A stretch of DNA of 64,000 nucleotides from an uncultured Gammaproteobacteria bacterium (GTDB taxonomy: Bacteria > Patescibacteriota > Microgenomatia > Levybacterales > GWA1-39-11): contig CAZIAP010000001.1 of the NCBI GenBank assembly GCA_964537315.1, forward strand, positions 314,888 to 378,887, given 5' to 3'. The notes beneath the pieces are model-generated. The model saw only the letters and a list, made by a program, of their open reading frames with translations, did not search any database and was not told where the DNA came from. The position numbers were made by a program, and so were the translations under genes. Below, piece after piece: positions 22,841 to 61,154 of the stretch; the first letter of the stretch is position 1; the number at the start of each line of letters is the position of its first letter.

Positions 22841-24535
22841 TTACTCAACCATTTTAACTGCAACTTCACCATTTAAATACTCAACTATATATACAGGCAA
22901 AACAGATTCCAGAAAGTCCTGAGTGCGTCCGACATGCAACACATTTCCTTCGCTTCTTTCATACTCAATCGGCTTGAAAACATATGAATCAAATTCCCTA
23001 TACCCACCTTCAAGATATTTTTTGACATCTTCATGATATTTTTTAGGAGGATACTGCAAGTGATATAAAAAGAAAATATATGATTGATCAAGCGGTGACT
23101 GGTCTGCAACTACTATTTTGTCATACCTATGTTTATTTTTTTCTGTGTATTCCACTACTTGTTTATATCCATACTGCCATTCCTGTGATGAAAAGTGGTT
23201 GTACTGCGAAAAGTATTGATTGAGATAGTAAGCTCCGCTTACAGTAGTAAGAATAAAGAATAAAGTATAAAGTAACGGACTTAATACCTGATACTTCATA
23301 CCTGATACTTTATACCTTGATATAAAAAGGAATGTTTGCACCAAACCAACTGCTCCAAAGATTTGAAATAGTGGCAAAAAATTCAAGGTTCGAACACTAC
23401 TGGGAACATCCCAGGTAACTGCTGCAGGAACTGGAACCAATAAAAACCATCCGAAAATAAAAAGTTTAATGCTTCTTGATATACCGCTAAGTAATAGTGT
23501 ATAGATTCCGATAAGAATGAATGGTAGAGTCCATATGTAAAGGTTTCCCATTGAAGGCGCATGATGTCTTTCGATAGTATCCCCTGTTACGAAAAGCCAG
23601 TTCGGATTAAAGTGCGCAAGGTAATTACCAATTATTATTTTTGTGTGTACTACCCTCGCGTTATTAAATATTATTCCAAGATAGTCACCTTGCATACGGT
23701 TTTGTGCTGTACGTGCATATGCTTCTTGAACCTGAGGATACTCTCGTGCAAATACGCTTACCCCACGTGCTCTGCTCAACGAATCTGGATTGGTAAGTGT
23801 GCTTGAGACAAAAGGAAAAACAATGATAGCACCGATTACAACAGTTAAAATAAGTACTGGTCTGGAAACACTTGATAATATTTTTTTCCAAAATAAAGTG
23901 AGTAACAATATCACCATTAACGGTACAAATAGCTTCTCACTCTGGTATAGATAAAGCGCAGAACCTAGAAACACCACACTAAGTGGAAATAATTTATTTT
24001 TGCGAAGTCCTGCGAAAAAAAACAAAAAACCTAAAATATTAAATGTAACTGCCGCATTCGCTTCAAAGGCTACTCGAGAAAACTGAATATGCCAAGGAGA
24101 AATAGCCAAAAGTCCTGCAGCGACTATTGGGGTTATTGCTGCCCATTTGCCGACTAGTGGACTATCATCTGATTTGTTTTTAACCTTTAAAAATCTCAGA
24201 GACAGAAATTCTTTTACCAAGAAATAAGTAGCGATTACAGCTGTAATCCCAAGCAATGCTGATGGAAGTCTTACTGCAATGTCAGACAACCCAAATAATG
24301 CAATGAGTGGAATAATAAAATAGACATACAATGCAGGTTTAAAATCCCCAAATGACCGAATTGTTAGGGGTAAAAACTCTCCATATTCATCTCTACCTGT
24401 TTGCAAAATTGAGTATGCGTTATATCCTAGCGCTGCCTCATCCCAATCAAGAGATACAGGAATATTCCCGAGCTGCCACAATCTTAGAACCGCGGCAATC
24501 AAAATGACAAAAAATAAAATTAATTTATATTTCAT
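22841..24535 (-). CDS. GT39-family (PMT/ArnT-like) polyprenol-phosphate-sugar dependent glycosyltransferase, tandem paralog 1
   Basis: N-terminus MKYKLILFFVILIAAVLRLWQLGNIPVSLDWDEAALGYNAYSIL...GRDEYGEFLP is the canonical PMT_2 DE-motif loop. Confidence 0.75.
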   Translation of the reverse strand: MKYKLILFFVILIAAVLRLWQLGNIPVSLDWDEAALGYNAYSILQTGRDEYGEFLPLTIRSFGDFKPALYVYFIIPLIALFGLSDIAVRLPSALLGITAVIATYFLVKEFLSLRFLKVKNKSDDSPLVGKWAAITPIVAAGLLAISPWHIQFSRVAFEANAAVTFNILGFLFFFAGLRKNKLFPLSVVFLGSALYLYQSEKLFVPLMVILLLTLFWKKILSSVSRPVLILTVVIGAIIVFPFVSSTLTNPDSLSRARGVSVFAREYPQVQEAYARTAQNRMQGDYLGIIFNNARVVHTKIIIGNYLAHFNPNWLFVTGDTIERHHAPSMGNLYIWTLPFILIGIYTLLLSGISRSIKLFIFGWFLLVPVPAAVTWDVPSSVRTLNFLPLFQIFGAVGLVQTFLFISRYKVSGMKYQVLSPLLYTLFFILTTVSGAYYLNQYFSQYNHFSSQEWQYGYKQVVEYTEKNKHRYDKIVVADQSPLDQSYIFFLYHLQYPPKKYHEDVKKYLEGGYREFDSYVFKPIEYERSEGNVLHVGRTQDFLESVLPVYIVEYLNGEVAVKMVE

Positions 24536-24619
24536 ATAAATCAGTATCCAGTATAGTGTATACAGTATTTAGTTAGAAAAGAATTCCGTATCTTGAGACG
24601 GTTAAGTTTGCCCCGCTTA

Positions 24620-26248
24620 CTAAATGTCCACAGTGTATACAATAAAAACAGTTTTTCCATTCATTAATTTGATTTCTTTCTGAATATTTGCATCCTCTGG
24701 TACCAGCTCCGGGACATTGATATAAAGATTGCTGCCTTCTACTGTATGCGGTAAGTCTTTTCCAAAATGGAGATTTTCATAACGATTTACAGAGACAAAT
24801 CCAAATGAGTCTCTATGTATATCAGCATTAGTTCTAAAACTATTCGGATCTACCTGGTGATACAAGAGAAAGTAGATATATGGTCTTCCGAGCTGCGATG
24901 TTATATACACCGCGTCATAGTCATCCTTTTTTTGTTCAATATACTGGGCTGCTTCTTTATACCCATACTGCCATTCACCTGAGTATTTTTCAGCGTAGTT
25001 CTGTGAATATCCATACAAAAAGTACCAGAGATTTATTGCCAGCAATACAAGTAACATTGCTCCTATAACCCGCTGTCGCTTAAAAAACGCAAGTGCAGAT
25101 ACAAAACCATACGCTGCTATAATCTGTACTGTAGGAAGTACAGTCTCGATACGCAACGCATGAGGAGTTTCTCGAGCAGTCGCAGCCGGAATTATGCCAA
25201 CTGCAAACCAAACCGGAATCAACCACCAATGACCTTCCTTTCTACGAACCAAAAGAAATATTCCCAAACCCACAAACACAATATCCCAAAGATACAACTG
25301 CCCAACTTCTTGTGTTGAAAACCGCGGATTCACATCTCCTGAGATAAACAAAAACTGTGGATCAATATGGTCAAGATAATGTTTTATGTATTCGCGAGTA
25401 TACCCAACTCTACGGTTATTAATTATTTTTGACCACCACGCGTTGTCATCGTTTGCTATCTTTTGATTCGCCTCTTCTACGATTCTAATGTCACTAAATA
25501 TATTGACCTCCCGAAATCTTAAATTTGCTTGTGGTGAAAGAAGAAAGGGAATAAGCGGCAACACTAACAGTCCTCCTACAAGACCTGCAATAAGCGTTGA
25601 TTTTTTGTTCTCCCAAAGTTTACGCCAAAATACGATTACTAATACAAAAACTAGAAGTGGAGCAACAATGCGCGTGGTGTTAAATGTATAAAACGAGAGT
25701 GCAAATGAGATAGCTGATAAAGTTAAATACCAAGGTTTCGTGTTAACTGCTTTTATAAATGCGTAAACTCCAAATACTATGAAAAAACTCGCCACATTTG
25801 CTTCAAACGCAGCGCGTGATAGCATGATATGCCAAGGAGATACAGCTAAAAATAATGAGGAAAATAATGCAATCAACTCTATTCTCTTTGCATCTTTGTC
25901 ACGTTTAAAGTGAAAAATTTCTTTGACTAAAAAGTAAGTTGCCAGTACTGTTAGTACTCCGAACAATGCTGATGGAAGACGTACAGCAAACTCTGTAAGT
26001 CCTAAAATTTTTACCGGAACTACCGCCAAGTAAGCATATAACGGCGGCTTAAAATCACCATATGATTCAAGATATTTATATGGTAAAAACTCACCAAACT
26101 CATCTCGTCCATCAATTCCTAAAGTGTAAGCGTTATATCCCCATGCGGCTTCATCCCAATTAAGAGAAGGAGGATTTGTTCCAAGAGCATAGAATCTCAA
26201 AACTGCTGCTATGACTATTATTGCTAATAAAATTAACTTGTATTTCAT
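24620..26248 (-). CDS. GT39-family glycosyltransferase, tandem paralog 2
   Basis: MKYKLILLAIIVIAAVLRFYALGTNPPSLNWDEAAWGYNAYTLGIDGRDEFGEFLP. Confidence 0.75.
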   Translation of the reverse strand: MKYKLILLAIIVIAAVLRFYALGTNPPSLNWDEAAWGYNAYTLGIDGRDEFGEFLPYKYLESYGDFKPPLYAYLAVVPVKILGLTEFAVRLPSALFGVLTVLATYFLVKEIFHFKRDKDAKRIELIALFSSLFLAVSPWHIMLSRAAFEANVASFFIVFGVYAFIKAVNTKPWYLTLSAISFALSFYTFNTTRIVAPLLVFVLVIVFWRKLWENKKSTLIAGLVGGLLVLPLIPFLLSPQANLRFREVNIFSDIRIVEEANQKIANDDNAWWSKIINNRRVGYTREYIKHYLDHIDPQFLFISGDVNPRFSTQEVGQLYLWDIVFVGLGIFLLVRRKEGHWWLIPVWFAVGIIPAATARETPHALRIETVLPTVQIIAAYGFVSALAFFKRQRVIGAMLLVLLAINLWYFLYGYSQNYAEKYSGEWQYGYKEAAQYIEQKKDDYDAVYITSQLGRPYIYFLLYHQVDPNSFRTNADIHRDSFGFVSVNRYENLHFGKDLPHTVEGSNLYINVPELVPEDANIQKEIKLMNGKTVFIVYTVDI

Positions 26249-26287
26249 GTTTATATGTTACTTATTAACCTTCCAACTTTTTAACAT

Positions 26288-27955
26288 TTAATATTCCGTT
26301 TTTTGAACCTGTCCAACAAAGTATATGACATTATTGTTAATATCCTTAATTTCCGAAATAAGACCAGGTGGTTGCGTTTGTTCTTGGTATTCTTCCGGTG
26401 ATAGGATAACTAACGCATTTTTTGCACCCGAGTAATCAATTAAGTTTACTGATCCCAGTTCGCTCGGTCCTTCTTTTATCCACGAGGTGCCTCCAAATTT
26501 ATATTTACCAAATTGATACGGAGTGCCATTTTCTTGATACTCTTTTGGATCGTACTGAGTGTAAAATAATGTATAAATATACGGTTGCCAGTAGTGCCCT
26601 GAAATTATTACAGATTCATACTTCGAATGATTTTCTTGTACATACTCATTCAACTGTTTATACCCGTCTCCCCAATCCTTTGCGGTGAGAAAAGTACTGG
26701 TCGTAAAATAATTAAACAAATACGTACTAACCCAAAATAAGGCAATAGTCATACCTACCGCAGCAACCGGAATCCGAACGCGTGATTTTAAATGTTGAAA
26801 TAAAAATATAACTCCAATTGCGACTAAAATCTGTGGTACCGGAAGCAGATTCAGTGTACGAAGCGCGTGGGGAGCAAAAATCGAGAGAGCAGCTGGCAAC
26901 GGCGCCAATAACAACCAACCAAATATTACGTACTTAGCTTTTCCTCTTGACCTAGCAAGTATATATCCACCGTATATCAACAAAGGAAGTTCCCACAAAT
27001 ACATCACTCCCATATTCCGAGGGCTATGACGGGGATTAGGATCTCCGGAAGTAAAAAGAAAACTTGGACTGAAGTGAGATAGGTAGTTACTTACGATCTC
27101 ATTAAAATATACTACCCTCTCATTATAAAAAATATTCCCTAAATATCCATTTCCCGACTGAATTGCCCACATCTGAAATAGCGAAACTTTTTCATCAAGA
27201 TTATTAAATACGAGAACATCATTCGCTCGAGATGATCCATCAGATATATAGACTTGTTGGATGACAGGAATAGCTAATACTACAAACAGTATCGAAGCAA
27301 TTATTAACCAGGTTATATTTTTCTTGGCAAGTATTTGTTTCAAAAATACTACCCCAATTACTAGTAGTAAGAGTGGAAGAAACAAATGGATACTTCTATA
27401 AAAGTAAAGACTAACTCCCAAGAATGTAGCTGAGATTATATAGTTATACGATCCCATGCGTATAGCTCGCATCAAAAATGTAAGTCCCAGAACTACAAAA
27501 AACAATCCTCCATTTGCTTCGTATGCAGCACGCGAAAACTGAATGTGCCATGGAGAGATTGCTAAAAGCCCTGCAGATAGAAGTGAAATTGGTTCTTTTA
27601 TTTTTGAAAACTCAAAATGCCGTAGTAGTTCCCTAGTTAAAAAGAAAGTTGCTATAACTGTACCAATTCCAAATAGCGCTGAAGGGAGACGAGTGGTAAA
27701 CTCATTTAACCCAAGTAATTTTATAACTAATGCCGCCGAATATATGTAGCCGGGCATTTTGTAATCACCAAATGCCTCAAATAAAGTAGGGAGGAACACA
27801 CCATGTTCATCACGAAAAGTCTGGGCAATTGAAAAAGCATTGTATCCGATAGAAGCCTCATCCCAGTAAATCGATACCGGCACACTTCCAAGCTGCCAAA
27901 GCCTGAGAGCTGAAGCAATTATAATAATCAAGAATAAAGCCAGTTTAAGTTTCAC
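26288..27955 (-). CDS. GT39-family glycosyltransferase, tandem paralog 3 (GTG start)
   Basis: MKLKLALFLIIIIASALRLWQLGSVPVSIYWDEASIGYNAFSIAQTFRDEHGVFLP. The start is GTG at 27952-27954. Confidence 0.75.
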   Translation of the reverse strand: MKLKLALFLIIIIASALRLWQLGSVPVSIYWDEASIGYNAFSIAQTFRDEHGVFLPTLFEAFGDYKMPGYIYSAALVIKLLGLNEFTTRLPSALFGIGTVIATFFLTRELLRHFEFSKIKEPISLLSAGLLAISPWHIQFSRAAYEANGGLFFVVLGLTFLMRAIRMGSYNYIISATFLGVSLYFYRSIHLFLPLLLLVIGVVFLKQILAKKNITWLIIASILFVVLAIPVIQQVYISDGSSRANDVLVFNNLDEKVSLFQMWAIQSGNGYLGNIFYNERVVYFNEIVSNYLSHFSPSFLFTSGDPNPRHSPRNMGVMYLWELPLLIYGGYILARSRGKAKYVIFGWLLLAPLPAALSIFAPHALRTLNLLPVPQILVAIGVIFLFQHLKSRVRIPVAAVGMTIALFWVSTYLFNYFTTSTFLTAKDWGDGYKQLNEYVQENHSKYESVIISGHYWQPYIYTLFYTQYDPKEYQENGTPYQFGKYKFGGTSWIKEGPSELGSVNLIDYSGAKNALVILSPEEYQEQTQPPGLISEIKDINNNVIYFVGQVQKTEY

Positions 27956-27999
27956 AGTAATCTGTATTCAGTATTTATCTATAATCATAATTCATATAT

Positions 28000-28716
28000 C
28001 TAATCTCTAAACCGATACTTGATGAGTGTTTTTAGTGCTTCTATACCTTCAGGAATAGTCTGAAGTTTTTTTCCTTCCTCATATCCACGTGGCGTAGTAC
28101 GTATTGATATCTCGTGTATTTTATAGCCTGCTTTGATCAGTTTTGCGGTAACTTCCGGTTCAAAGTTAAATCCATTTCCCATTATCTTAGTTTTTTGAAT
28201 AAATTTTTTAGGAAAAATTTTATAACAAGTCTCCATATCTGTAACCCATTGCAAGTATAGAATACTGGTAATTAAACTCAAAAATCTGTTACCAAGATAA
28301 TGGATAAGAAATCTTGGACGTGACTCCTCTCCTCTAAGATGAGGCAAGCGCTTCAAACGTGTACCATAAACTACTTCTGCCTTTCCTTCCTGAATAGGAC
28401 GAAATAGTTTTTTCAAATCAGAAGGATTATACTCTAGATCCGCATCCTGAATTACGAAGTAGTCTCCGGTAGCTGCTCCCATACCGGTACGTACAGCAGC
28501 TCCTTTTCCTTTGTTTTTTTGATGTGTTAATACAGTCAGATTTGGGATCTTTTTTTCCAAGCTTGTTAAAATTTTTCCTGTATTGTCTGATGAGTAATCG
28601 TTTACTATTACAATTTCTTTGTCTGACGGTGAAATATCTACAGAGGAGACTTTTCTAATTACTTGCTCTACTGTTTTTTCTTCGTTAAAAACAGGAATAA
28701 TTATGGATAATTTCAT
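28000..28716 (-). CDS. GT2 polyprenol-phosphate glycosyltransferase-like (Dpm1/ArnC/GtrB-like)
   Basis: MKLSIIIPVFNEEKTVEQVI...IVIVNDYSSDNTGKIL; about 240 aa, as expected for a catalytic domain. Confidence 0.65.
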   Translation of the reverse strand: MKLSIIIPVFNEEKTVEQVIRKVSSVDISPSDKEIVIVNDYSSDNTGKILTSLEKKIPNLTVLTHQKNKGKGAAVRTGMGAATGDYFVIQDADLEYNPSDLKKLFRPIQEGKAEVVYGTRLKRLPHLRGEESRPRFLIHYLGNRFLSLITSILYLQWVTDMETCYKIFPKKFIQKTKIMGNGFNFEPEVTAKLIKAGYKIHEISIRTTPRGYEEGKKLQTIPEGIEALKTLIKYRFRD

Positions 28717-28747
28717 CTACTGATAAATTATATCAGTAAATTGCTTG

Positions 28748-29692
28748 CTATAACAGTACATTATGAAAGACTTCTTTATCTGATAAGACAAACAGCTGCT
28801 TACTTCTTTTACGTTTACTAAGAATTTCAGGTAAGCTGACTATTGCGAGAAAAAGTCCACTAAAAAACATCCAATCTCGGGAGAGTGTAAATCTTAAAAC
28901 ATAATATGGGAAGTACCATAGATGTGAAAGGAGATACATAACGTCGGTAATATTTTTCCAGACAAAAATTATTTGATTACGATACGCAATCTTTTTAACT
29001 TGATCTCTGGTAAAGTTTTGTTTAATAGCCCCCTCTTCGTGACGGTGCTCAACTACACTTTTTCTATCGAATTTTATCTTATAACCTGACTTTAAAGCTC
29101 GATAAGATAGATCGATATCCTCCCAATAAAATGGATTATATATCTCATCAAAACCCCCAAGTTTTTGAAAAATTGAAGCTCTAACTATACTACTTCCTCC
29201 GGATACCCATAATGTGTTTGTGTCGTCTACACTTCCCTTCCTGTGCATCAAAAATCCCTGTTCAAATTTACCTAGCCCTCTTCCACGCAAAACCTCTTTC
29301 CCTCCCTCTATGCTTCTATCCATACATCCGACTGCAAACAAACTTTCTTGCTCCTCAAATTGTGGAATTACTGAGTCTAAAAAGTTTTCTTCAGGAATTA
29401 CATCGCTATTTAATAAAACTAATAGATCAGCACTACTTTGCCCAGCACCAACATTAACAGTTTTAGAAAACCCGTAGTTTCTTTTATTTCTAATCAGGGA
29501 TATAGGAATTGAGTCAGTTTTTCTGAAGCGCGCAATAAATGATTCAAGAGCCTCATAATCCTCAATTTTTGAGTGATCATCAACAATGATAATTCCGGCA
29601 TCATGTTTTTTAACAGCACGGACTACCGAATTAAGATTTTTTTCGATTATTTTTGATCCGTTATAGTTAGGAATAATTACATCAATTTTCAT
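28748..29692 (-). CDS. glycosyltransferase family 2 with C-terminal membrane anchor
   Basis: MKIDVIIPNYNGSKIIEKNLNSVV...IIVDDHSKIED. Hydrophobic C-terminus. Confidence 0.75.
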   Translation of the reverse strand: MKIDVIIPNYNGSKIIEKNLNSVVRAVKKHDAGIIIVDDHSKIEDYEALESFIARFRKTDSIPISLIRNKRNYGFSKTVNVGAGQSSADLLVLLNSDVIPEENFLDSVIPQFEEQESLFAVGCMDRSIEGGKEVLRGRGLGKFEQGFLMHRKGSVDDTNTLWVSGGSSIVRASIFQKLGGFDEIYNPFYWEDIDLSYRALKSGYKIKFDRKSVVEHRHEEGAIKQNFTRDQVKKIAYRNQIIFVWKNITDVMYLLSHLWYFPYYVLRFTLSRDWMFFSGLFLAIVSLPEILSKRKRSKQLFVLSDKEVFHNVLL

Positions 29693-29738
29693 AAGTAATT
29701 AAGTTTCAGTTAAGCATTAATTCGTACGTGATTCAGTC

Positions 29739-32066
29739 TTAAAACTTAAATAGTTTATTCTCAAATATCACTGTATGTCTTCCTGCAGGAACAATTACAC
29801 CGCGGAAAGCATAGTTTGTACGATAAATTTCAGTTTCTTTTCCGTTAATACTAGCGCTCCATGTAGGATAGTATGCATCAGTAAAAACCAGGTATCCTTC
29901 ACTATCACTATTTGTTTGAATATCTACCCTATTAGTATCATACCGTATTATACGCGCTGAACCAGATGCAAATGTTTGTGTTTGTATATCTCTGCCTACT
30001 ACTGCTTCAGAAGTTAAGTCATGTGAGTATAAGGCAGACAACTCAGCTTCTTGTGTGGAATAGCTATGGATCTGGGATACAAAAAATACTCTCGGTAATG
30101 CACGACTATTTTGATAAACAATTGTTTGTCCTTCTTCTGCAACTTTTTCTAAATATTCAGGAACTGATTGGGAGGTGGCAAGAATAAATCTTGTATTCAA
30201 TAAATGCATCAGGTCGGTGTTCATACGACGAGGCGTAACGATTCGATTAAACTCAATTAATGTATTGGTCTCTCCCTCTCCTCTCTCTAGAGCTGAAACA
30301 TATTTTCCGTACCATGTAGTATATAAAGGATCGTATCCGTCAACTGATGCAAGTTTATAGGTTGTTAAAAAATTTGCAGGCATTACTTCAGAATTTAAAG
30401 ATGCAACTCTAAATGGATCATGCTGATTTTCTAAATATGAGATGGTCTGAGTATTTGGAAAAAGATATTCTGGACGTGTAAATGGCAAGAATTTATCTGA
30501 AAATCTTAGTAAGTCTAGCGCTGCAATACCAAAAAACAGGAGCGGAACCACAAGTTTTGACCGATTGCCTGAAAACACATGTGCAAAAAATGCTGAACAT
30601 ACTGCTGCTGCAAAAAGAGCTGTTGGAAGAATCAAGTTTTTTTGCGCTACAACCCAGTTCTCCAAACTCTGCGCACCAAGCCAGCCTACTTTAAAAAATA
30701 CTAATACCCAAAGAGCCAACAGAATAGCGCCCACTAAAAATAAAACAGTGTAAAACTGATAATATGTCTTTCTTCCTTTATTGAGACGTGCTGTAAAATA
30801 CTCTAAACCAAACGACGCCAATACGGAGAATGAAAATGTAGAAATAAATAATAGTCGAGTTGGCTGTGCTGTGGACAGTAGAGGAATTTCTAGCATGTAG
30901 GGAAGTCTTGCGATCATATTATCAGTCGCAAACAACAATGACATTAACAACGTTACAGTAAAAAATATAGTCCTTTTACTTTTATAGAAAATGACAGCAA
31001 TACCCGCAAACAATAATGGAACGATCCCAACATAACCAACTAACTCTCCATAATTCCACGTCCCCCAGTAATTTAGAGTTGTAGGATTTCCAAAAAAATC
31101 AGGCGCCACAAATTGTATCAAATGTTGGATGGGGATGAACCAACCCTCTTGCTGTGAATATAACTGATCTGTCTGTCGTGCTGAAAGTAAAATAAACTGT
31201 AATGTAGGAATCCATTGAATAGCAGTTAGTAATAAGTACAGTGTATAGGGTATGAAGAAAAAGAGTAATAGCTTTAAATTTTTAGCCTGAATTGCTCGAG
31301 CCAGCAAATATAACAAAGAAAATGCGACTACATAAAAGTGGGTTTGTAAGTGTCCAGCAAATAACGAAAAGGACAGAGAATAAGAAAGAATTAAACTCCA
31401 GAGAACAATTAGTTTGTAGTTTGTGACGGATGGTTTCTTACTATGTTTAGATTTTAGCCATGAACTATTAGCTAATAACCAACTACTACTTTTATCTATT
31501 GATAAAAGTATCAATGGTAGCCACAACACAGTGTGTATAATATTTCCCCACTCAAGCCAAGCAATAAAAAATCCGGAAAAAACAAAAGCTAATGCTCCAA
31601 ACGCAGATGCTGATCGAGAAAGATTTAAGTTACGGGTATATAGATAAAAGAAAACTGCCCCCAGTATCTGCTGTAGCATAATAAATGCAGTCCACCCTAA
31701 AATAAAATTCTTTCCTATCAATAAAATGTTTAATGGATAAAATGCTCCTGACTGAAAATTGGCAAGCAGTGGTTTTCCAGTCATTTCATAAGGATTCCAC
31801 AATGGAAGTTCTAGTGCACGCCAAGAATCCATAACTAGCATCTTCCAAGGAATTATCTGTCGAACAGGGTCAGTGATTAAAAAATTTTTAAATGGAATTC
31901 CGTTAGGATAATCGGCAGCATACAGATCACGGTATGGGTGATATAGACCGATAATTGTATCCGCAGGAACAGGGATAAGACCGTGTAGGATTGTTTGATG
32001 AAAGAGTGCAAGTACTGTGCAGACTAAAAGAAAAGGATAAAAATACTTGGTAATAACTTCTCTCAT
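29739..32066 (-). CDS. very large polytopic membrane protein (775 aa), YfhO-like putative glycosyltransferase
   Basis: About 14 TM helices followed by a ~200-aa beta-rich C-terminal domain, an architecture typical of the YfhO family. Confidence 0.45.
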   Translation of the reverse strand: MREVITKYFYPFLLVCTVLALFHQTILHGLIPVPADTIIGLYHPYRDLYAADYPNGIPFKNFLITDPVRQIIPWKMLVMDSWRALELPLWNPYEMTGKPLLANFQSGAFYPLNILLIGKNFILGWTAFIMLQQILGAVFFYLYTRNLNLSRSASAFGALAFVFSGFFIAWLEWGNIIHTVLWLPLILLSIDKSSSWLLANSSWLKSKHSKKPSVTNYKLIVLWSLILSYSLSFSLFAGHLQTHFYVVAFSLLYLLARAIQAKNLKLLLFFFIPYTLYLLLTAIQWIPTLQFILLSARQTDQLYSQQEGWFIPIQHLIQFVAPDFFGNPTTLNYWGTWNYGELVGYVGIVPLLFAGIAVIFYKSKRTIFFTVTLLMSLLFATDNMIARLPYMLEIPLLSTAQPTRLLFISTFSFSVLASFGLEYFTARLNKGRKTYYQFYTVLFLVGAILLALWVLVFFKVGWLGAQSLENWVVAQKNLILPTALFAAAVCSAFFAHVFSGNRSKLVVPLLFFGIAALDLLRFSDKFLPFTRPEYLFPNTQTISYLENQHDPFRVASLNSEVMPANFLTTYKLASVDGYDPLYTTWYGKYVSALERGEGETNTLIEFNRIVTPRRMNTDLMHLLNTRFILATSQSVPEYLEKVAEEGQTIVYQNSRALPRVFFVSQIHSYSTQEAELSALYSHDLTSEAVVGRDIQTQTFASGSARIIRYDTNRVDIQTNSDSEGYLVFTDAYYPTWSASINGKETEIYRTNYAFRGVIVPAGRHTVIFENKLFKF

Positions 32067-33130
32067 GATATCAATAGTTGGTTAATCCTTTTGCAAAATT
32101 CCTCTATACTAAATCTATCTGAGGACTTTATAGCCGAGGCAGAATAATCTTTCAGTTTCATTTCATTTTTTATCAGAAGATTTGTGTAACTCATCAGTTC
32201 TTCTTGAGTATTCCATAATAATCCATTTTTTTCATGTTCGACTATCTCAACCTGACCTCCTGCATTAATTACTACTGGCACTGCGCCTGCCCCCATTGCC
32301 TCAACAGTTGAGATACCGAAGTGCTCTGCTCGCTCAGGATGTTTCTCAAGATCCTCTCCAAACCCTGATGCATGCCAGTATATTTTTGCCTTATTGTACT
32401 CTTTCCACAAATCTTTATTTATTGCATTTATGATAAATGAGATCGGATAACCTGCTGCCGTTGCTTGCATTTTTTGAAAATCAGCTAGGTCATGAGTACG
32501 AACACTTGCTGCAATAACAAGTTTCCAGTCTTTTAATCCTGCATCCACAAGCTTTTTGAAAGTATCGATCATGAAGTACTGCTTTTTGTAATCTGATCCC
32601 TCAACACCTGATTTCATAAATCTTCCCACATGAAGAATCACATTTTCTTTTTGAGCACTTTCTTTTTGTATATTGACCGGAGGATATAATATCTGGCTGT
32701 TTATACTCAGCTTCTTGTCTATTAACTCTTTTGTAAATTGAGAATTACAGATAACACCTGATACTTTTCGTAATTTAATTTTTGTTTTTAGATCTACCCG
32801 TACCCATTCAACCGGAAATTGCATATGAAGATATAGTTTTTTAGAAAACACAACAGGTATGCTTCCATCACTTAAATAAAAAATTACATCATATTTTCGA
32901 CTTGCAGATATTCGTTGGGTAAATGAGACACCTGGGCCAAAAATGTTTTTTTCACAACGAACCTTGGATAAATCTAATCCAAAGCGTTCTTCATTTTTTT
33001 CAATATCCTTCTCATCATCCCACAACATTATTACCTCGTGGTTTTTTGACAGACACTCGGCAGCCGTTAGCATGTACTTTTCTCCCCCACCTAATGTATC
33101 TAAGTAAGGGTCATATATAGCTATTTTCAT
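32063..33130 (-). CDS. glycosyltransferase family 4
   Basis: MKIAIYDPYLDTLGGGEKYMLTAAECL...ISTVEAMGAGAVPVVINAGGQVEIVEHEKNGLLW. Confidence 0.85.
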   Translation of the reverse strand: MKIAIYDPYLDTLGGGEKYMLTAAECLSKNHEVIMLWDDEKDIEKNEERFGLDLSKVRCEKNIFGPGVSFTQRISASRKYDVIFYLSDGSIPVVFSKKLYLHMQFPVEWVRVDLKTKIKLRKVSGVICNSQFTKELIDKKLSINSQILYPPVNIQKESAQKENVILHVGRFMKSGVEGSDYKKQYFMIDTFKKLVDAGLKDWKLVIAASVRTHDLADFQKMQATAAGYPISFIINAINKDLWKEYNKAKIYWHASGFGEDLEKHPERAEHFGISTVEAMGAGAVPVVINAGGQVEIVEHEKNGLLWNTQEELMSYTNLLIKNEMKLKDYSASAIKSSDRFSIEEFCKRINQLLIS

Positions 33131-33132
33131 AT

Positions 33133-33225
33133 TTCAGTATGCAGTATTCTGTATTCGGTATTCAGATATTATTTCACATACTGTATACTCGATTCTCGAT
33201 ACTTTATACTGTCTTGATTCTATCA
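33133..33225. repeat. tandem period-7 repeats (plus CAGTATT-like, minus GAATACN) immediately 5' of the start codon of the GT4 gene at 33130
   Basis: ttcagtatgcagtattctgtattcggtattcagatatt... followed by actgtatactcgattctcgatactttatactgtc. The same heptad family recurs at 24542..24576, 27954..27985 and 47033..47083. Confidence 0.6.
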
Positions 33226-33229
33226 GAGC

Positions 33230-33511: not shown

Positions 33512-33648
33512 GTTAGTTATTGGTTAATAGTTCGTGGTTCACAGTTCATGGTTATTGGTTCACAGTAAAGCTTCAATAAATTGTTCGCGGTTATTGGTTC
33601 ATGGTTCGTGGTACATGGTTAATTCAAAGAAAGCTTCAAAGCATTAAT
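33512..33648. repeat. degenerate tandem/inverted short repeats (GTTATTGGTTCA, GGTTCACAG, AAAGCTTCAA) between convergent gene ends
   Basis: gttattggtt occurs 3 times, gttcgtggt 2 times and ggttcacag 2 times. Related motifs recur in inverse orientation at 34789..34861. Confidence 0.55.
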
Positions 33649-33981
33649 CATTTTCGTAAGTGACAAACATTTCATATATATACGCTTATATTTCTCTTCT
33701 GATAAATACTTTTGATTATTAGCTATAGTAAGTATTGCCACACATTCAAAGCAAGATCCTTTTGCTATATCCAGGAAATGCCGAAAATCTTTCTTTGTTC
33801 TACTAGTTCCCTCTGCTATATTAAGTGTGATAGATACTGCAGCTCTCTGAAGTTGATTTGTTAACCCAAACTGTTCTTCTTTTGGAAATTTTTTTGTAAT
33901 CTGATATATTTCATTACAAATTTTTAATGCATCTTGATACACTCTTAGGTCTTCAAATTTAAATTTTTCTTTTGAGTCCAT
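33619..33981 (-). CDS. four-helix-bundle protein (TIGR02436, the family also found in 23S rRNA intervening sequences)
   Basis: FEDLRVYQDALKICNEIYQITKKFPKEEQFGLTNQLQRAAVSITLNIAEGTSRTKKDFRHFLDIAKGSCFECVAILTIA reproduces the conserved QLRRAAvSi.NIAEG...FL.iA.GS..E pattern. Confidence 0.8.
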   Translation of the reverse strand: MDSKEKFKFEDLRVYQDALKICNEIYQITKKFPKEEQFGLTNQLQRAAVSITLNIAEGTSRTKKDFRHFLDIAKGSCFECVAILTIANNQKYLSEEKYKRIYMKCLSLTKMINALKLSLN

Positions 33982-34022
33982 ACTATGAACAATGAACTAT
34001 TAACTATTAACAACAAAAAGAA

Positions 34023-34772
34023 CTAGTTCTTTTTGTTTTGTAATTCCCAAAGCTTCGCGTAGGTAATAAACATTGAGTAGGTTTGGTAAATTGCTTCTAT
34101 AAATCCTTCCGTTCCATTTCTATACCCGTGGTCTTTTATATACGAGCTGAAAAAACCTGTAATCATTACTCTGATAAAACGAAGCGGCGTCATCGGTGGA
34201 TGTTTTGCGTCATACCTCAACTGCGCTTCATAATCTGACCACTCTATAGTTTTGTATAGCATCTGTGACAGATTCTGATGGGTAAAGTGATGTACCGGAC
34301 TTTCGATATGTCCGTACATACCATTAATTTCAGGAGTCTCGTGAACTGTTCCGTACCACTTAATAAATCGCTTTCTAACAAACAATCGCTGCACCTGATC
34401 CGTCATTCCCCAGTCTTTACCGTAATAATATGTTTTTCTTTTTATGTAGTATCCGCCGATATCAGAACTTGGATCATATTCAGATATTATCTTTTTTACT
34501 TCTGCGCAAAATCGCTTAGTTGCGAACTCATCTGAATCCAAATACAGTACCCAATCTCCTTTTGCTTGTCTAAAAGCAAAGTCTCTTTGATCTGCAAAAT
34601 TTTTCAAGCCGCGTCTGATAACTTTTGCTCCTGCAATTTTTGCTACTTCAACTGTCCTGTCAGTAGACTCTGAATCAACAACAATAACCTCGTCTGCAAT
34701 AGGTTTTATATTTCCGATACAATCGGCTAAAGTAAATTCTGAGTTTTTGGTTAAGATGATTACAGATAACAT
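34023..34772 (-). CDS. glycosyltransferase family 2 (paralog of 17134..17961)
   Basis: LSVIILTKNSEFTLADCIGNIKPIADEVIVVDSESTDRTVEVAKIAGAKV. Confidence 0.8.
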   Translation of the reverse strand: MLSVIILTKNSEFTLADCIGNIKPIADEVIVVDSESTDRTVEVAKIAGAKVIRRGLKNFADQRDFAFRQAKGDWVLYLDSDEFATKRFCAEVKKIISEYDPSSDIGGYYIKRKTYYYGKDWGMTDQVQRLFVRKRFIKWYGTVHETPEINGMYGHIESPVHHFTHQNLSQMLYKTIEWSDYEAQLRYDAKHPPMTPLRFIRVMITGFFSSYIKDHGYRNGTEGFIEAIYQTYSMFITYAKLWELQNKKN

Positions 34773-34788
34773 AATTTTCGTTCACAGT

Positions 34789-34861
34789 TCACCGTTCTCT
34801 GTTCACAGACTTCTTTTTTTGCTTTTACTGCGAACCGTGAACCAATAACAGTGAACCAACC
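34789..34861. repeat. GTTCACAG and GTGAACCAATAAC repeats, inverted copies of motifs at 33512..33648
   Basis: cgttcacagttcaccgttctctgttcacag and cgaaccgtgaaccaataacagtgaaccaacc. The latter is the reverse complement of ggttggttcactgttattggttcacggttcg. Confidence 0.5.
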
Positions 34862-35781
34862 TAATCCGATACAGGATAGCTTCCTCTTCCAAATTTTCTG
34901 AGATAGAAATCTTTGACCCCAAGCTTTTGCCATTTACGTCCGTTTCGTAAAATTCTCAAACTTTCCCGTATAAGTGCAACTTTTGTTCTAACACTTGCAT
35001 ACCGCATACCAAATAGCATCCTATTACGAGAGATATAATAATCTTGTAGATCAGATCCTGATCCGCCGGTTGACCCAGCGTTATCGTGCCATAAAATCGC
35101 AGATGGAACAAAATAAATGTTCCCGTAGTCTTTAAGTTTCATACATAGATCATTGTCCTCATAATACAGAAAATAGTTCTCATCAAAGTTGCCGGATTTA
35201 CCCAGTATGTCGGTACGAATTAATAAGCATGCTCCGGTTCCAAACTCTGTTTTTTCAGTTTTGTCGTACTGACCCTTATCAACTTCGTCGACTCCTCTAT
35301 GATGACCGACAATATTTTTCCAATCCATTTTACCACCAGCGTACCAGATTACTTTTCCCTGCTCAGACTTTTTATATCTATCGCTATGGAACTCTTGCCC
35401 GGCAGTAAAATATATTTTTGGTGCGACAGCAACAGCATCTTCCAGTTTTTTAATTTCATTTACAAGATTAGTAACTAAGTTTTTATCAGCCGTCGTATCA
35501 TTGTTTAGTATCAGTACATAATCAGCATTTTGTTCTTTCGCAAAAACTATCCCACGATTATGACCACCTGAAAATCCGAGGTTCTTAGATGAATGATCAA
35601 TCGACAGATTAAGCTTTTCATATTTTTTAGTTGATACCTCAAAAGGTATTTTTGAATGATTATCAACTACTCTTACAATTAAATTAACCCCTTCTTGTTT
35701 CATCTCAAGCAGTGAATCCAGACAGCGAACTGTCTTTTCAGATGAGTTATAGTTAATAATTGAAATAGCTACTTTCTTCAT
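34861..35781 (-). CDS. glycosyltransferase family 2 (rhamnosyltransferase-like)
   Basis: MKKVAISIINYNSSEKTVRCLDSLL...VVDNHSKI. Confidence 0.8.
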   Translation of the reverse strand: MKKVAISIINYNSSEKTVRCLDSLLEMKQEGVNLIVRVVDNHSKIPFEVSTKKYEKLNLSIDHSSKNLGFSGGHNRGIVFAKEQNADYVLILNNDTTADKNLVTNLVNEIKKLEDAVAVAPKIYFTAGQEFHSDRYKKSEQGKVIWYAGGKMDWKNIVGHHRGVDEVDKGQYDKTEKTEFGTGACLLIRTDILGKSGNFDENYFLYYEDNDLCMKLKDYGNIYFVPSAILWHDNAGSTGGSGSDLQDYYISRNRMLFGMRYASVRTKVALIRESLRILRNGRKWQKLGVKDFYLRKFGRGSYPVSD

Positions 35782-37238
35782 GATCGTTCTCGTATTGACT
35801 GGTATACAAAACGTACTGTTTTAAGCAAATCATCTTTTGCCAACGCAAATACAAACAAAACATACACAACTCCTGATAATAAACCAATTAAAATAACCAT
35901 AGTAAGTGATGTCATGAAAGGAGAAGAAATCAAAATGAATGCACCCATCAAAATTGCTGCAATAAGCTGTTTATATACTTGTCGAATGAAAGAAAACTCA
36001 ATATATTTCTTTACAAAATATACTACTCCCAATCCGCTTGCTGCGACAAGAAATGACGCTGCTGCCACACCATTATACCCAAACGGATTAATTAACAAGA
36101 GTGTCAACATCCACGTGAGCGCAGTCATGTAAATCATTACGTATAAAGTAGTTTTTATTTTTCCTATAGCGTTCAAGAAATTAGTTAACGGCACACTTAC
36201 ACTAGCAACTAACGCGTTAAGACTGTAGAGAGTAAGAGCAAGAATCGCAGGCTCCCATTTTTGGTAACGCGGAATATACTCAACCAGTGGAGGCGCAAGC
36301 GTAATGATTCCGGCTACAACCGGAAAAATAAATAATGAAATTAGAAACAATGTTTTCTCTACTCCTCGCGCAAGTGCTTTCTTATCGTGTTGTAATCTGC
36401 TAAATGAAGGGAAAGTTACTTTTATAACATTATCCATCACAAGTCTCAGTGGTAAGAACGCCCATTTCTGTGCAAAACCTATGTATCCTACCGCGGTCAA
36501 AGGTAAAATCTTTGCAATAAACACAGCCAAAAGATCATCTTTAAGCAGCGCAAGAATACTATTCATCTGAAAAGGAACTCCAAACCGCATTAAAGATTTA
36601 ACTACCGGAAGCGAAAATGCAAAACCTACTTTCCAAGGATGTACATAGTAGGTTGCGATCAATCCAACGATTCCCCTAAGTAGGACAGCGACGGTAAAGC
36701 TATTTACTCCCCATCCTGATACTACCAGTACAATAAGCGCAACATTGTACACTACGTTTTCAATAATCTGAGGAATAACCAAACGCTCAAATTTTAGATG
36801 CCGTTCAAGCATCACAGTTGGAATTGTTTTTAAAGACGAAAGCAAAAAAGATATAAAAAATGCGTAAAGTAAATAAAGCCCAGGTGCATCAAGATTATAG
36901 AAATCGGCTATACGAGGAGCAAAAATCATTGCCGGAACAATTAGACACAAAACAAGTATTTGTTGTGTCGTAAATACATTGCGGTACTCCTCAAGGGTAG
37001 GTTCTTGTTTTTTCTGTATCAAAGAAGCTGCAAGACCAATATCAGAAAAATAATTAAAAAATACTATGATTGATGAAACAAGGAAAAAAATTCCAAAACT
37101 TTCTGGATCAAGGTAAACAGTTAGGATAAAACTGGCAATTATTCCCAGAACCTGCACTAAAAACGTACGTGAGATAAGTGCAGAGACTCCTTTGATTGAC
37201 CGCTTTGCGATCATTTGAATGTCAAGCTGTTCATCCAT
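35778..37238 (-). CDS. Wzx-type polysaccharide flippase (MOP/oligosaccharidyl-lipid flippase family)
   Basis: 486 aa, about 14 TM helices. Typical size and hydropathy profile. Sits between GT2 genes. Confidence 0.65.
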   Translation of the reverse strand: MDEQLDIQMIAKRSIKGVSALISRTFLVQVLGIIASFILTVYLDPESFGIFFLVSSIIVFFNYFSDIGLAASLIQKKQEPTLEEYRNVFTTQQILVLCLIVPAMIFAPRIADFYNLDAPGLYLLYAFFISFLLSSLKTIPTVMLERHLKFERLVIPQIIENVVYNVALIVLVVSGWGVNSFTVAVLLRGIVGLIATYYVHPWKVGFAFSLPVVKSLMRFGVPFQMNSILALLKDDLLAVFIAKILPLTAVGYIGFAQKWAFLPLRLVMDNVIKVTFPSFSRLQHDKKALARGVEKTLFLISLFIFPVVAGIITLAPPLVEYIPRYQKWEPAILALTLYSLNALVASVSVPLTNFLNAIGKIKTTLYVMIYMTALTWMLTLLLINPFGYNGVAAASFLVAASGLGVVYFVKKYIEFSFIRQVYKQLIAAILMGAFILISSPFMTSLTMVILIGLLSGVVYVLFVFALAKDDLLKTVRFVYQSIRERS

Positions 37239-46814: not shown

Positions 46815-47032
46815 ATATGCGGATTGAAACCATAAAACTGCTTAAATTTTAACGTAGAATGTGAATCGAATCAAAGACACGTATAAATAGGCAGGTGTCT
46901 TTATCTTTAGAGTTCAAAAATTCTCGAATATAAGCAGATGTATGATCACAATCTGCCGCGGAATATATGTATTATATGCTAACTTACGCGATTTGTCAAT
47001 ACTAGAGGATAATCCTCCAATTGGCGGAAAAT

Positions 47033-47083
47033 ACCAAGTATTCAGTATGAAGTATCAAATATCAGGTATTAAGCATTAAGTAG
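47033..47083. repeat. period-7 NNNAGTA tandem repeats (same heptad family as at 33133)
   Basis: accaagtattcagtatgaagtatcaaatatcaggtattaagcattaagta. Confidence 0.5.
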
Positions 47084-47119
47084 AGAGTCTGCAGATATCA
47101 AGCTATACTGTGTACCAAT

Positions 47120-47195
47120 ATGTCAAGAACCGATCTTGACATATATATACATTTAGAAGCTAGAAATCAATATGTGTCAAGAACCGATCTAGACA
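47120..47195. promoter_or_regulatory. two copies, about 50 bp apart, of a ~21-bp palindromic site: TGTCAAGAACCGATCTTGACA, then TGTCAAGAACCGATCTAGACA
   Basis: The first copy has perfect 8-bp inverted arms (TGTCAAGA/TCTTGACA); the second has one mismatch. Both lie in the 432-bp intergenic region upstream of the mazG-like gene. Confidence 0.35.
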
Positions 47196-47246
47196 CTTTT
47201 ACTTCAAACCGTAAACTGTTAGCGAAGAGCTACCAACTATGAACTC

Positions 47247-47906
47247 TTAACTATTAACTAAATATCCAACGATATCTCTTATTTCCTGCTCGGTAACTCC
47301 GTGTCCTGAATCGTATTCTTTGATAGTGCACTCTACACCAAGCCTTTCAAGCGTATCAACTACTTTTTTACTTTCTGAAGGTGAAATCATATGATCCTGA
47401 AGTCCGATACTCACAAATGCACGAGTGTCACTATATTTCTGATTGAATTCAGGCTCAAACGGAAGCATAGGATGTAATAGAACTAGATTTTTCATTAATT
47501 GTGGGTAGTAAAATAGCATCGCACAAAGCATATTTGCGCCATTTGAGTATCCTAAAAAAGTCAAATCTTCTGATGAAACTTTATGTTTTTCCATCCAAGA
47601 ACGTATAAATGTTCCTAACTTTCCTGCCTCTTCTTTAATATTCTCCTGATCAAAAACTCCGAATGATATTCTTCTGAAAAACCGATTCATCCCTTTTTCT
47701 TGAACATTTCCCCTCAAGCCTACTAGATTATATTTTTTGTCTAAAAACTCATCTAAAAATAATAAGTCATGCTCATCTCCGCCAGTTCCATGAAGTAAAA
47801 ATAGCGTTTTTTTCGCTCCATTATCTATTTGTGAGTATTTAAAGGTTCCTAAACTTTCTTCCATAGTAAAATTAATCTGATGAAATCTTAGGCAAATTAG
47901 CCTCAA
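47247..47906 (-). CDS. alpha/beta hydrolase, phospholipase/carboxylesterase family (MhqD-like)
   Basis: LFLLHGTGGDEHDLL and GYSNGANM (nucleophile elbow G-x-S-x-G). 219 aa. Confidence 0.75.
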   Translation of the reverse strand: MRLICLRFHQINFTMEESLGTFKYSQIDNGAKKTLFLLHGTGGDEHDLLFLDEFLDKKYNLVGLRGNVQEKGMNRFFRRISFGVFDQENIKEEAGKLGTFIRSWMEKHKVSSEDLTFLGYSNGANMLCAMLFYYPQLMKNLVLLHPMLPFEPEFNQKYSDTRAFVSIGLQDHMISPSESKKVVDTLERLGVECTIKEYDSGHGVTEQEIRDIVGYLVNS

Positions 47907-48813
47907 TCATCTCCCGTTCCGGTTCAAGAAACGGAGGTAGTGCAAGCTTTTTACCAAGATCTCCTTCTTTTTCATCTGCTGTAAAGCCAGGTCCATCAGT
48001 CGCGATTTCAAACAGAATTCCAGCAGGAGTTCTAAAATACACTGATTTAAAATAGAAGCGATCTATTACTTCGGTTGGGTACAACCCGAGGCTAGCAACT
48101 TTATCTCGCATTTTTTGTTGTTCTTCTTCATCACGAGCCCGAAAAGCTATATGGTGTACAGTTCCAGCTGCGTTATATCCCACCTCTTCGGAAGGTAGCT
48201 CGTGCACTTCCAAAAAATTAGCTCGCTTTGAGCCCGGTACGGCAAAAAGATGAATGTGATCATCTACATCCACTTTTTCATAGTTAAAAACGTGGTTCAG
48301 AATTGGCTCGACTGTGGCAAAACTTATTACTGACAAAGAAGCAGAGTAAAAGCTGCGAACTGCATTTTCTTTTGTTACCTCATCAGTAACCCACACATCA
48401 GAATCTTTGTCTAATTCCATCTTGGGTACTCCTACCAGCTCTAATTGCTGATCATCATTATCGTAAAAGAGGATTCTTTTTCTACCGAATCTTTCGATAA
48501 TCTGTTCATGTTTTACAGACAAAGATTCAAATCTTGCTTTCCAAAACTCCAGTGAATCTTCTGGAACTGTCAATGAAATATTTGTAACTAATCCATTACC
48601 TCGCCTACCCTGAACTGATGGCTGAAAAATGAAAAATGTGAGATCCATGCCTGGATGTCCTAGCTTGTCTCCAAAAAAAAGATGATAAGTTTCTACGTCA
48701 TCTTGATTTACAGTTTTTTTCACAAGTCGTAAGCCAACAGTTTTAGTATAAAAATCTATATTTTCCTGTGCGTTTGAAGCAATTGCAGTAATATGATGGA
48801 TCCCACTAGTCAT
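47872..48813 (-). CDS. VOC/glyoxalase-family ring-cleaving dioxygenase (MhqA/E/O-like)
   Basis: GIHHITAIASNAQENIDFYTKTVGLRLVKKTVNQDDVETYHLFFGD matches the conserved N-terminus of the Bacillus Mhq dioxygenases. Two-domain 313-aa length. Confidence 0.7.
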   Translation of the reverse strand: MTSGIHHITAIASNAQENIDFYTKTVGLRLVKKTVNQDDVETYHLFFGDKLGHPGMDLTFFIFQPSVQGRRGNGLVTNISLTVPEDSLEFWKARFESLSVKHEQIIERFGRKRILFYDNDDQQLELVGVPKMELDKDSDVWVTDEVTKENAVRSFYSASLSVISFATVEPILNHVFNYEKVDVDDHIHLFAVPGSKRANFLEVHELPSEEVGYNAAGTVHHIAFRARDEEEQQKMRDKVASLGLYPTEVIDRFYFKSVYFRTPAGILFEIATDGPGFTADEKEGDLGKKLALPPFLEPEREMIEANLPKISSD

Positions 48814-61148: not shown

Positions 61149-61154
61149 TTTTAA

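Follow-up and report, generated by a model that had tools for sequence, protein, structure and literature searches.

Tandem heptanucleotide arrays before glycosyltransferase genes of a Levybacterales bacterium are probably transcribed, lineage-specific repeat insertions

We analysed a 64,000-nt stretch of DNA (the window; positions 314,888 to 378,887 of contig CAZIAP010000001.1, assembly GCA_964537315.1) from an uncultured bacterium of the GTDB order Levybacterales, in which tandem repeats of a 7-nt unit stand directly in front of glycosyltransferase (GT) genes. The window has a G+C content of 35%, nearly all of its genes lie on the minus strand, and the region at 15–45 kb is a glycosylation cluster according to Pfam-based family assignment. 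The genes and the arrays are listed in Table 1. A sequence-only reading of this DNA had described phased heptads abutting the start codons of two GT39 genes and of the GT4 gene, as well as a related array near 47 kb. Both descriptions were confirmed, the distances to the start codons being 0–6 nt. Specifically, 6 nt separate the end of the site 1 array from the ATG of the GT39 gene 22841..24535, and site 3 ends 5 nt from the ATG of GT4. At site 2 the final G of the array is also the G of the GTG start codon of the GT39 gene 26288..27955 (1-nt overlap; the GTG start at 27955 is backed by an alignment of paralogues). From the 47-kb array it is about 220 nt to the nearest downstream start codon and about 35 nt to a perfect TTGACA-17-TATAAT promoter downstream of the array (46999..46971, minus strand), which itself is found about 155 nt upstream of a gene with a MazG domain. 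The 432-nt spacer at 46815..47246 also contains a duplicated 'agatcggttcttgaca(c)atattg' motif and the palindrome 'ccaattggaggattatcctc'.

Table 1. Arrays, cassette parts and genes of the window (coordinates are window positions; ORF, open reading frame).
Feature	Coordinates	Strand	Description
ATACT array, site 1	24569..24542	minus	AATACTG TATACAC TATACTG GATACTG; 4 units, 84-nt junction
ATACT array, site 2	27975..27955	minus	AATACTG AATACAG ATTACTG; 3 units
ATACT array, site 3	33163..33135	minus	GAATACC GAATACA GAATACT GCATACT; 4 units, right hairpin arm
Left hairpin arm	33177..33211	plus	CATACTG TATACTC GATTCTC GATACTT TATACTG; 5 units
Extended -10 box of GT4	33225..33217	minus	TGATAGAAT; conserved in L002 and strain B
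ATACT array at 47 kb	47083..47033	minus	AATGCTT AATACCT GATATTT GATACTT CATACTG AATACTT GGTATTT; about 7 units
ORF-less inverted pair	34780..34857	minus	GGTTCAC TGTTATT GGTTCAC GGTTCGC, 19-nt loop, CTGTGAA CAGAGAA CGGTGAA CTGTGAA C
GTTAA/GTTCA-type array	47225..47264	minus	TAGTTAA TAGTTAA GAGTTCA TAGTTGG; overlaps stop codon of hydrolase gene 47247..47906
Array inside GT39 coding sequence	23239..23319	minus	AGGTATnAAGTATC x3, then T-rich TTATACT-like units
PF05635 four-helix-bundle gene	33619..33981	minus	23S_rRNA_IVP / TIGR02436; 120 aa, cassette core
5' arm of cassette	33984..34011	minus	GTTAATA GTTAATA GTTCATT GTTCATA, then GT, ATG
3' arm(s) of cassette	33512..33618	minus	two blocks, together about 12 units (TGAACCA/CGAACTA/TTAACCA type); the four-helix-bundle and DUF5652 genes on either side are convergent
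Three tandem GT39/PMT_2 genes	22841..27955	minus	Pfam PMT_2; more PMT-like membrane proteins downstream
GT2 genes	28000..29692, 34023..35781		others at 17 and 44 kb
YfhO gene	29739..32066
GT4 gene	32063..33130	minus	Pfam Glycos_transf_1/Glyco_transf_4
DUF5652 gene	ATG at 33236		divergent from GT4; Pfam
Flippase-type gene	35778..37238

The repeat unit can be written N-ATACT-G. The core ATACT and the phase are kept from unit to unit, and the variation is found at unit positions 1 and 7. A self-match scan of the window gave 8 arrays at lag 7, compared to about 0.1 in shuffled sequences and about 0 at most other lags. The pattern ATAC-N3-ATAC-N3-ATAC occurs 8 times where 0.02 matches are expected. 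In the related loci (192 kb) we counted 23 lag-7 arrays and no more than 5 arrays at any other lag. The head-to-tail period of 7 nt is thus strict and its phase is conserved beyond chance. The arrays are mostly intergenic and close to start codons that lack a Shine-Dalgarno (SD) sequence. Both properties are shared with two kinds of heptamer repeats known from other bacteria, the short tandemly repeated repetitive (STRR) sequences and the TAACTGA repeats. By a hand tally, 7 of 11 arrays end at most 24 nt from a same-strand start codon and five of these seven at 0–7 nt; it is important to note that the sample is small and that compact junctions force such proximity. Arrays are also found at the 3' ends of genes, between convergent genes and inside coding sequence, so the earlier picture of a feature of gene starts was too narrow.

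The region 33133..33225, described before as one array of about 13 copies, consists instead of two inverted arrays and a -10 box. The inverted pair is located between the divergent GT4 and DUF5652 genes, a 13-nt loop separates its arms, and in either arm ATACT faces the adjacent gene, the left arm pointing at DUF5652 at a distance of 24 nt from its ATG. The RNA fold of 33131..33229 has a free energy (dG) of -22 kcal/mol and a z score of -3.9. Paired arrays as a set give z scores of about -3.5 to -3.9, and no fold is seen for the solitary ATACT arrays (z about 0).

Array gain could be followed by comparison with related loci. A scan of a genome collection gave only two relatives at the level of the GT4 protein, both about 70% identical: L002, a metagenome-assembled genome (MAG) of Candidatus Levyibacteriota, and L003, a mislabelled MAG. 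Closer and more syntenic relatives were obtained via protein searches, among them one that we call strain B (loci L018-L022, from five samples), and the GT39 homologues carry the labels Levybacteria, Woesebacteria or Patescibacteria. These relatives place the organism in the Microgenomates group of the Candidate Phyla Radiation. In L002 there is no array, and 13 nt lie between 'catatgcaagctcTGATAGAAT' and the ATG of GT4. The window keeps the same 22 nt 'catatgcaagctcTGATAGAAT', continues with the 75-nt inverted heptad pair, and has the -10 box TGATAGAAT displaced by the hairpin to 86 nt upstream of the GT4 ATG. A 13-nt spacer in L002 as compared to 86 nt in the window means that the array is an insertion between the conserved -10 box and the ATG. 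In strain B the same TGATAGAAT is followed by an unrelated inverted pair, GTTAACG/GTTAATG ... CTCGTTAA.

The tight operon junctions tell the same story. Locus L035 is fully syntenic with the window (GT4-YfhO-GT2-GT2-GT39-GT39-GT39...), with 62% identity between the GT39 orthologues. The junctions of L035 measure 14, 1 and 6 nt, compared to 44, 39 and 84 nt in the window; site 1 corresponds to the 6-nt junction, which has no array, and site 2 to the 14-nt junction. In a further locus, L036, the genes overlap at the corresponding junctions. There are no lag-7 arrays in the 26 kb of L035 and L036. Among 32 loci searched for ATACT-type arrays, a single chance-level match was found, in L003, apart from L001, which is the window's own sequence. 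Presence and length of the arrays are thus lineage-specific, as seen from L002, L035, L036, strain B and L003, and this too is a property of STRR and TAACTGA repeats. Judged by synteny, the arrays are recent, lineage-specific gains in tight operon junctions and short leaders of the glycosylation cluster. Arrays recur at the same places with a content that is not conserved, the reverse of the pattern expected of a promoter or a regulator site.

A second heptad family, TGAACnn / GTTCAnn, is present in the same cluster. The ORF-less inverted pair of this family stops 7 nt short of the ATG of the GT2 gene 34023..34772 and folds with a dG of -26.7 and a z score of -3.9. At this site upstream of GT2, the window, strain B and L003 each have a GTTCA/TGAAC pair, of differing length, and L002 has none. 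The same family forms the arms of a cassette between the GT2 and DUF5652 genes. The core of the cassette is the PF05635 gene, whose family assignment is firm (Pfam E = 2.8e-38, NCBIfam E = 1.3e-34, PDB 2GSC homologue E = 7.6e-17). We know of no catalytic activity for PF05635. The family has been termed functionally uncharacterised both in rRNA insertions of Candidate Phyla Radiation (CPR) bacteria (PMC11270868) and in cas loci (PMC3936711).

Genes of this family are found in the intervening sequences (IVS) of 23S rRNA genes in Leptospira, Coxiella and Xanthomonas, where an inverted-repeat stem encloses the four-helix-bundle ORF, called S23p / PF05635 (PMC4990558). In Coxiella, GACAGAT heptamers run up to the ATG of S23p, strains differ in heptamer number, and RNase III cleaves the stem at the first repeat; IVS elements are regarded as selfish (PMC4990558). 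The cassette of the window is similar in that its arms pair in both minimum free energy (MFE) and centroid folds, in the window as well as in strain B, L003 and L004, and in that tandem heptamers reach the ATG of the ORF. It differs in its location, as it lies in a glycosylation operon between protein genes and not in an rRNA gene. The cassette is IVS-like in architecture and is not an rRNA IVS. Note that an ORF of the IVS-type family is found only at 33619..33981; the ATACT arrays carry no ORF.

The cassette is present at the same place in strain B, where the 3' arm has 4 units, compared to 12 in the window. When 33619..34022 of the window was aligned with positions 903..1309 of the strain B locus L019, the gene was 97.5% identical at the nucleotide level and the 5' arm was identical at 44/44 positions. 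Flanking genes of the two lineages are far more diverged (GT2 77%, DUF5652 65%, GT4 69%). An identity of 97.5–100% in the cassette against 65–77% in its flanks indicates that the cassette was recently transferred horizontally, or homed, into the same GT2/DUF5652 junction, and on the evidence of these identities the cassette has moved recently between lineages. The L003 gene is as diverged as its neighbours (67% nucleotide and 70% protein identity) and is in opposite orientation, with the same kind of arms. L002 has neither the four-helix-bundle gene nor the pair upstream of GT2. No second PF05635 copy of the window's genome was seen among the 120 homologues listed. Many PF05635 homologues are located on very short contigs, and L001 (Logan contig SRR7082976_2959), which carries GT4, stops about 116 nt upstream of the GT4 gene; this suggests that assemblies tend to break near PF05635 cassettes.

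Two arrays touch coding sequence in a different way. One array of the GTTAA/GTTCA type overlaps a stop codon (Table 1). The other lies inside a GT39 gene, where AGGTATnAAGTATC x3 (period 14, 90% matches) specifies a variable loop. As the protein level cannot explain this repeat, it is genuine at the DNA level. The T-rich half of this array encodes the last transmembrane helix, and the motif LYTLF-IL-T is conserved in P0007, an orthologue with 51% identity; this half may be codon-driven or coincidental. An in-frame insertion was considered for 23239..23319 and rejected, given that there is no length change relative to 10 orthologues and that the transmembrane motif is conserved. The orthologue in L035 has no array at this coding site. 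In strain B (L018, 7652..7738) a 527-aa ORF has the heptads AAATCGA AAATCGA AAATTGA as its first codons, followed by a second array CAAACAT CAAACTT CAAACGT, and a change in copy number there would shift the reading frame.

Taken with the published repeats, these observations are best explained if the window arrays belong to the STRR / TAACTGA class of heptamer repeats, inserted recently and in a lineage-specific way and transcribed, and are neither stacked promoters nor conserved regulator sites. We give this interpretation a probability of roughly 0.6. The arrays would arise and change their length by slippage, recombination or a process linked to the cassette. They would survive only where genes stay intact, which in a compact genome puts them against start codons, and they would be transcribed together with the operon. 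Single forward arrays would then form an A/U-rich, unstructured leader, and they probably act as SD-less leaders that an SD-independent organism tolerates. Inverted pairs are predicted to fold into imperfect stems of 20–30 bp. By analogy with rRNA IVS, such stems are likely targets of RNase III that would separate or destabilise mRNA segments, so that paired arrays probably act as processing or stability hairpins. Most likely the arrays are transcribed passengers, and regulatory effects, if any, would be secondary and post-transcriptional.

Repetitive extragenic palindromic (REP) sequences and REPINs of proteobacteria, with their RAYT genes, offer a more distant parallel: they too are short palindromic repeats in operon junctions and include a gene flanked by inverted repeats. 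However, RAYT genes encode a Y1 transposase of known chemistry, and REPs are single conserved palindromes, not tandem heptads.

The closest published description is that of the TAACTGA repeats, which occur in forward orientation a few nucleotides before SD-less start codons in Beggiatoaceae, Cyanobacteria and Bacteroidetes, at strain-specific positions (MacGregor 2015, PMC4679880). These are 7-nt direct repeats of 2–7 units which, like the arrays of the window, mostly point toward a start codon within a few nucleotides, are found within operons and show indels in steps of 7 nt, and the two units share xxACTGA (ATACTGA in the window, TAACTGA in the published repeat; PMC4679880). The unit sequence nevertheless differs, CPR/Patescibacteria are not among the reported phyla, and the window has in addition many inverted pairs and a link to the PF05635 cassette. 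Heptameric simple sequence repeats (SSRs) are over-represented in the intergenic DNA of several bacteria, for which there is no explanation so far; in Xanthomonas and Nostoc they include inverted pairs, with units such as GGGAATC and GGGGAYT (PMC4692102). With these SSRs and with the STRR heptamers of heterocystous cyanobacteria (Calothrix) the arrays of the window share the period of 7, several unit families per genome, intergenic position, occasional arrangement as inverted pairs that can form stem-loops and a length that varies among close relatives. The cyanobacterial and Xanthomonas repeats are longer, often perfect and in some cases G-rich and quadruplex-forming (PMC4692102), whereas those of the window are short, A/T-rich and degenerate. 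No paper linking CPR bacteria with heptamer repeats was found in our literature search. Our results extend start-codon-proximal heptamer repeats to the Candidate Phyla Radiation, and the syntenic comparison, with its recent insertions, cautions against reading such arrays as promoters or operators.

Several observations weigh against this interpretation. The arrays are concentrated at 23–35 kb and 47 kb within the 76 kb of this genome that could be covered (the window and 12 kb from overlapping contigs); the 12 kb beyond the window contain no further arrays. All four independent ATACT arrays face their downstream gene and three of them end 0–6 nt from its start codon, which hints at selection for position and orientation, albeit in a small sample in which orientation is confounded with strand. 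A conserved core of 5 nt with variable positions 1 and 7 could be recognised by a sequence-specific binder. Finally, no ATACT-type arrays were seen beside PF05635 genes, and on sequence grounds the ATACT family seems tied to the GTTCA-armed cassette by proximity, shared period and shared architecture only.

The cassette raises the question whether heptamer arrays and PF05635 genes are associated more widely. We compared 24 non-redundant PF05635 loci, 14 of them from metagenomes, the window and relatives and 10 from plasmid sequences (window 33512..34022; L003-L012, L018 and L023-L032). A lag-7 array was scored when at least 16/21 positions matched, within 130 nt upstream or 150 nt downstream of the gene. 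By this measure arrays lie upstream of 11/24 and downstream of 12/24 PF05635 genes, as compared to 2/138 and 6/138 for other genes at comparable loci (Fisher p = 5e-9 upstream and 7e-8 downstream, with controls that are not taxon-matched to the plasmid loci). Period 8 was found in 3–4 of the 24 loci and other lags in 0–1. A whole-sequence enrichment near PF05635 (p = 3e-8) was discounted, as it ignores the intergenic fraction, and the gene-by-gene comparison was used instead.

Represented among the plasmid loci are Nostoc, Anabaena, Calothrix, Pseudanabaena, Geminocystis, Leptolyngbya, Picosynechococcus, Riemerella and an Azospirillum 23S rRNA IVS. Lag-7 arrays pass the threshold on both sides of the gene in 7/10 of these loci, and 2/10 (Leptolyngbya, Picosynechococcus) have arrays of period 8. 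Judged by eye, inverted pairs are present in 8/10 loci; in Pseudanabaena the arrays on the two sides are direct, and N. punctiforme combines a clear array upstream with only a short run downstream. The units are taxon-specific, among others AGGTGAC, AGGGTGT, AAGGGAA, CAGGAGT, AAGGTTC and CAGAGGA. Cassettes are inserted within operons or genes: between cas6 and cas4 or cmr2 and cmr3 on cyanobacterial plasmids (L024, L025, L031), and between the homocysteine-binding and pterin-binding parts of MetH on Bacteroidota-like metagenome contigs (L006-L009, L015). A general association of PF05635 with heptamer arrays was not found stated in the papers that could be searched. Two papers on heptamer repeats do not mention PF05635 genes, and PMC4679880 contains neither 'S23' nor 'four helix'.

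A tentative alternative, which we consider possible and still rather unlikely, is that heptamer arrays and PF05635 genes form one widespread system. The array-bracketed gene would be the autonomous member, and the ORF-less arrays and hairpins its non-autonomous derivatives or targets. Whether situated within 23S rRNA, a cas operon or the glycosylation operon or between metH domains, the gene would on this conjecture encode a pentameric Avd-like protein that binds or propagates 7-nt repeats. STRRs, TAACTGA repeats and the ATACT arrays might then be its ORF-less members. If this is true, the STRR heptamers and the role of the rRNA-IVS protein would be explained together. Whatever the standing of that system, the very frequent bracketing of PF05635 by period-7 arrays in CPR bacteria, cyanobacteria, Bacteroidota and a proteobacterial rRNA IVS (24 loci), together with the movement of the cassette, is a testable lead on both the heptamers and the IVS protein. 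The link between PF05635 and heptamers and the cassette movement are a more valuable lead than the ATACT arrays themselves.

It is more doubtful that the forward heptads serve, in mRNA or DNA, as sites for a repeat-recognising post-transcriptional regulator, such as S1, a Csp-type protein or the four-helix-bundle protein, that would tune translation of the surface-glycosylation genes without SD pairing. This proposal can draw on the conserved core and phase with their two variable unit positions, on the forward orientation and start-codon distances of the independent ATACT arrays and on the lack of SD use in this genome. The TAACTGA repeats have the same bias of position and orientation and gave rise to the same hypothesis (PMC4679880), and heptamers near start codons of Nostoc affect the expression of reporter constructs (10.1101/2022.06.06.494920). 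Yet a conserved regulator site, which the sequence-only reading had offered as one option, is not what the relatives have: the orthologous junctions of L035, L036 and L002 are free of arrays, the GT4 leader of strain B contains a different heptad family, and the window itself has arrays at 3' ends, between convergent genes and within coding sequence. Moreover, a candidate binder was not found.

The sequence-only reading had also noted that the arrays leave no room for a Shine-Dalgarno sequence. This is true and is nothing special, as SD motifs (GGAG/GAGG at -20..-4) precede only 3/55 genes of the window, which equals the 5% background. In a genome that does not use SD sequences, a missing SD before the array genes is uninformative. 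At least 9 genes have a TGnTAnAAT box ending 4–14 nt before the start codon, for instance those starting at 17961, 22823, 28716, 37956, 48813, 52572, 55078 and 57612. In this genome, mRNAs with no leader or a very short one are probably the norm; this is not a property of the arrays.

Could the overlapping N-ATACT hexamers themselves be stacked -10 elements that give leaderless mRNAs of the glycosylation genes, as had been suggested? The spacing at two sites would suit transcription starting at the A of ATG (GATACT-7 nt-ATG at site 1, CATACT-5 nt-ATG at site 3), and the -10-like boxes of the genes just mentioned make short or absent leaders look common. The idea was not supported. The conserved TGATAGAAT upstream of the GT4 array is the likely promoter, which places the array in the leader. 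The heptads depart from the candidate promoter boxes seen before other genes of the window, as they lack T at -12 and A at -8 and have TG off by one base relative to TGnTAnAAT. Both site 1 and site 2 fall within an operon, and the corresponding junctions of relatives, with 1–14 nt, leave no place for internal promoters. Arrays of the TGAAC type, which look nothing like a -10 box, are found at equivalent positions. In a scan of 22–36 kb, sigma-70-type sites were fewer than in shuffled sequences (37 compared to 49.5), and terminators were likewise not enriched. A -10 stack would match the organism's own -10 consensus at the correct distance and have no other promoter upstream, and this combination is not seen in the arrays. 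We therefore regard stacked -10 elements as very improbable in general, and at site 1 (GATACT, 7 nt, ATG) as unlikely.

The phase-variable element proposed by the sequence-only reading comes nearest, of the earlier ideas, to the known relatives of the repeat. Contingency loci of this kind would switch or tune surface glycosylation by slipped-strand changes in heptad number, in the manner of the 7-bp repeats of H. influenzae hmw1A/hmw2A, which are likewise heptameric SSRs between promoter and start codon of genes for surface structures (PMC8262952, PMC12721329). There, heptameric SSRs drive phase variation, with involvement of 5'-UTR (untranslated region) structure and RNase III (PMC12721329, PMC8262952). 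The unit of the window arrays is not a multiple of 3, the arrays precede glycosyltransferase genes, and copy numbers differ between lineages (4 compared to 12 units). Heptamer number varies among strains of Coxiella (PMC4990558) and by 7-nt indels among strains of Cyanothece (PMC4679880). The H. influenzae repeats are, however, perfect, long and hypervariable, whereas the window arrays are imperfect: adjacent identical units are absent at 3/4 ATACT sites, and slippage rates should be much lower.

The copy-number comparison that had been proposed across strains was made with consensus assemblies and not reads, so low-level variation would not show. The window sequence recurs in the Logan assemblies of SRR7082966, SRR7082968 and SRR7082976. 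Each of these three contigs, which come from other samples, matches the window with 100% identity, and only one of them, L001 (SRR7082976, 11 kb, 5 arrays), overlaps arrays. The strain B arrays are identical in five samples. Length differences are therefore seen between lineages, and within populations neither near-perfect units nor length heterogeneity was found at the level of consensus assemblies. With imperfect units and arrays identical in the one overlapping assembly and among the strain B samples, contingency loci are highly improbable, and we give them the least credit of all.

Other features of the window lie apart from the arrays. In the spacer between genes 47872..48813 and 49011..49934, a 38-nt unit is repeated 2.5 times at 48901..48996 (Tandem Repeats Finder (TRF) score 109), with the palindrome GGTTGAACC / AGGTTCAACCTT inside. 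At the gathering threshold, Rfam reports only tRNA-Glu for the whole window and no RNA family over the arrays. Next to this tRNA-Glu and to a gene with a GIY-YIG domain is a region of about 2 kb without an ORF of at least 100 aa (59413..61368, and similarly 58225..58689), in which G+C is raised to about 0.40–0.42. It contains two similar segments, each opening with 'gtacattaaaa' and continuing with a 'ctgccgaaagaggag...cttttcttccggcgg'-type stem. The region at 59413..61368 may hold small genes or non-coding RNAs, or it may be a mobile remnant.

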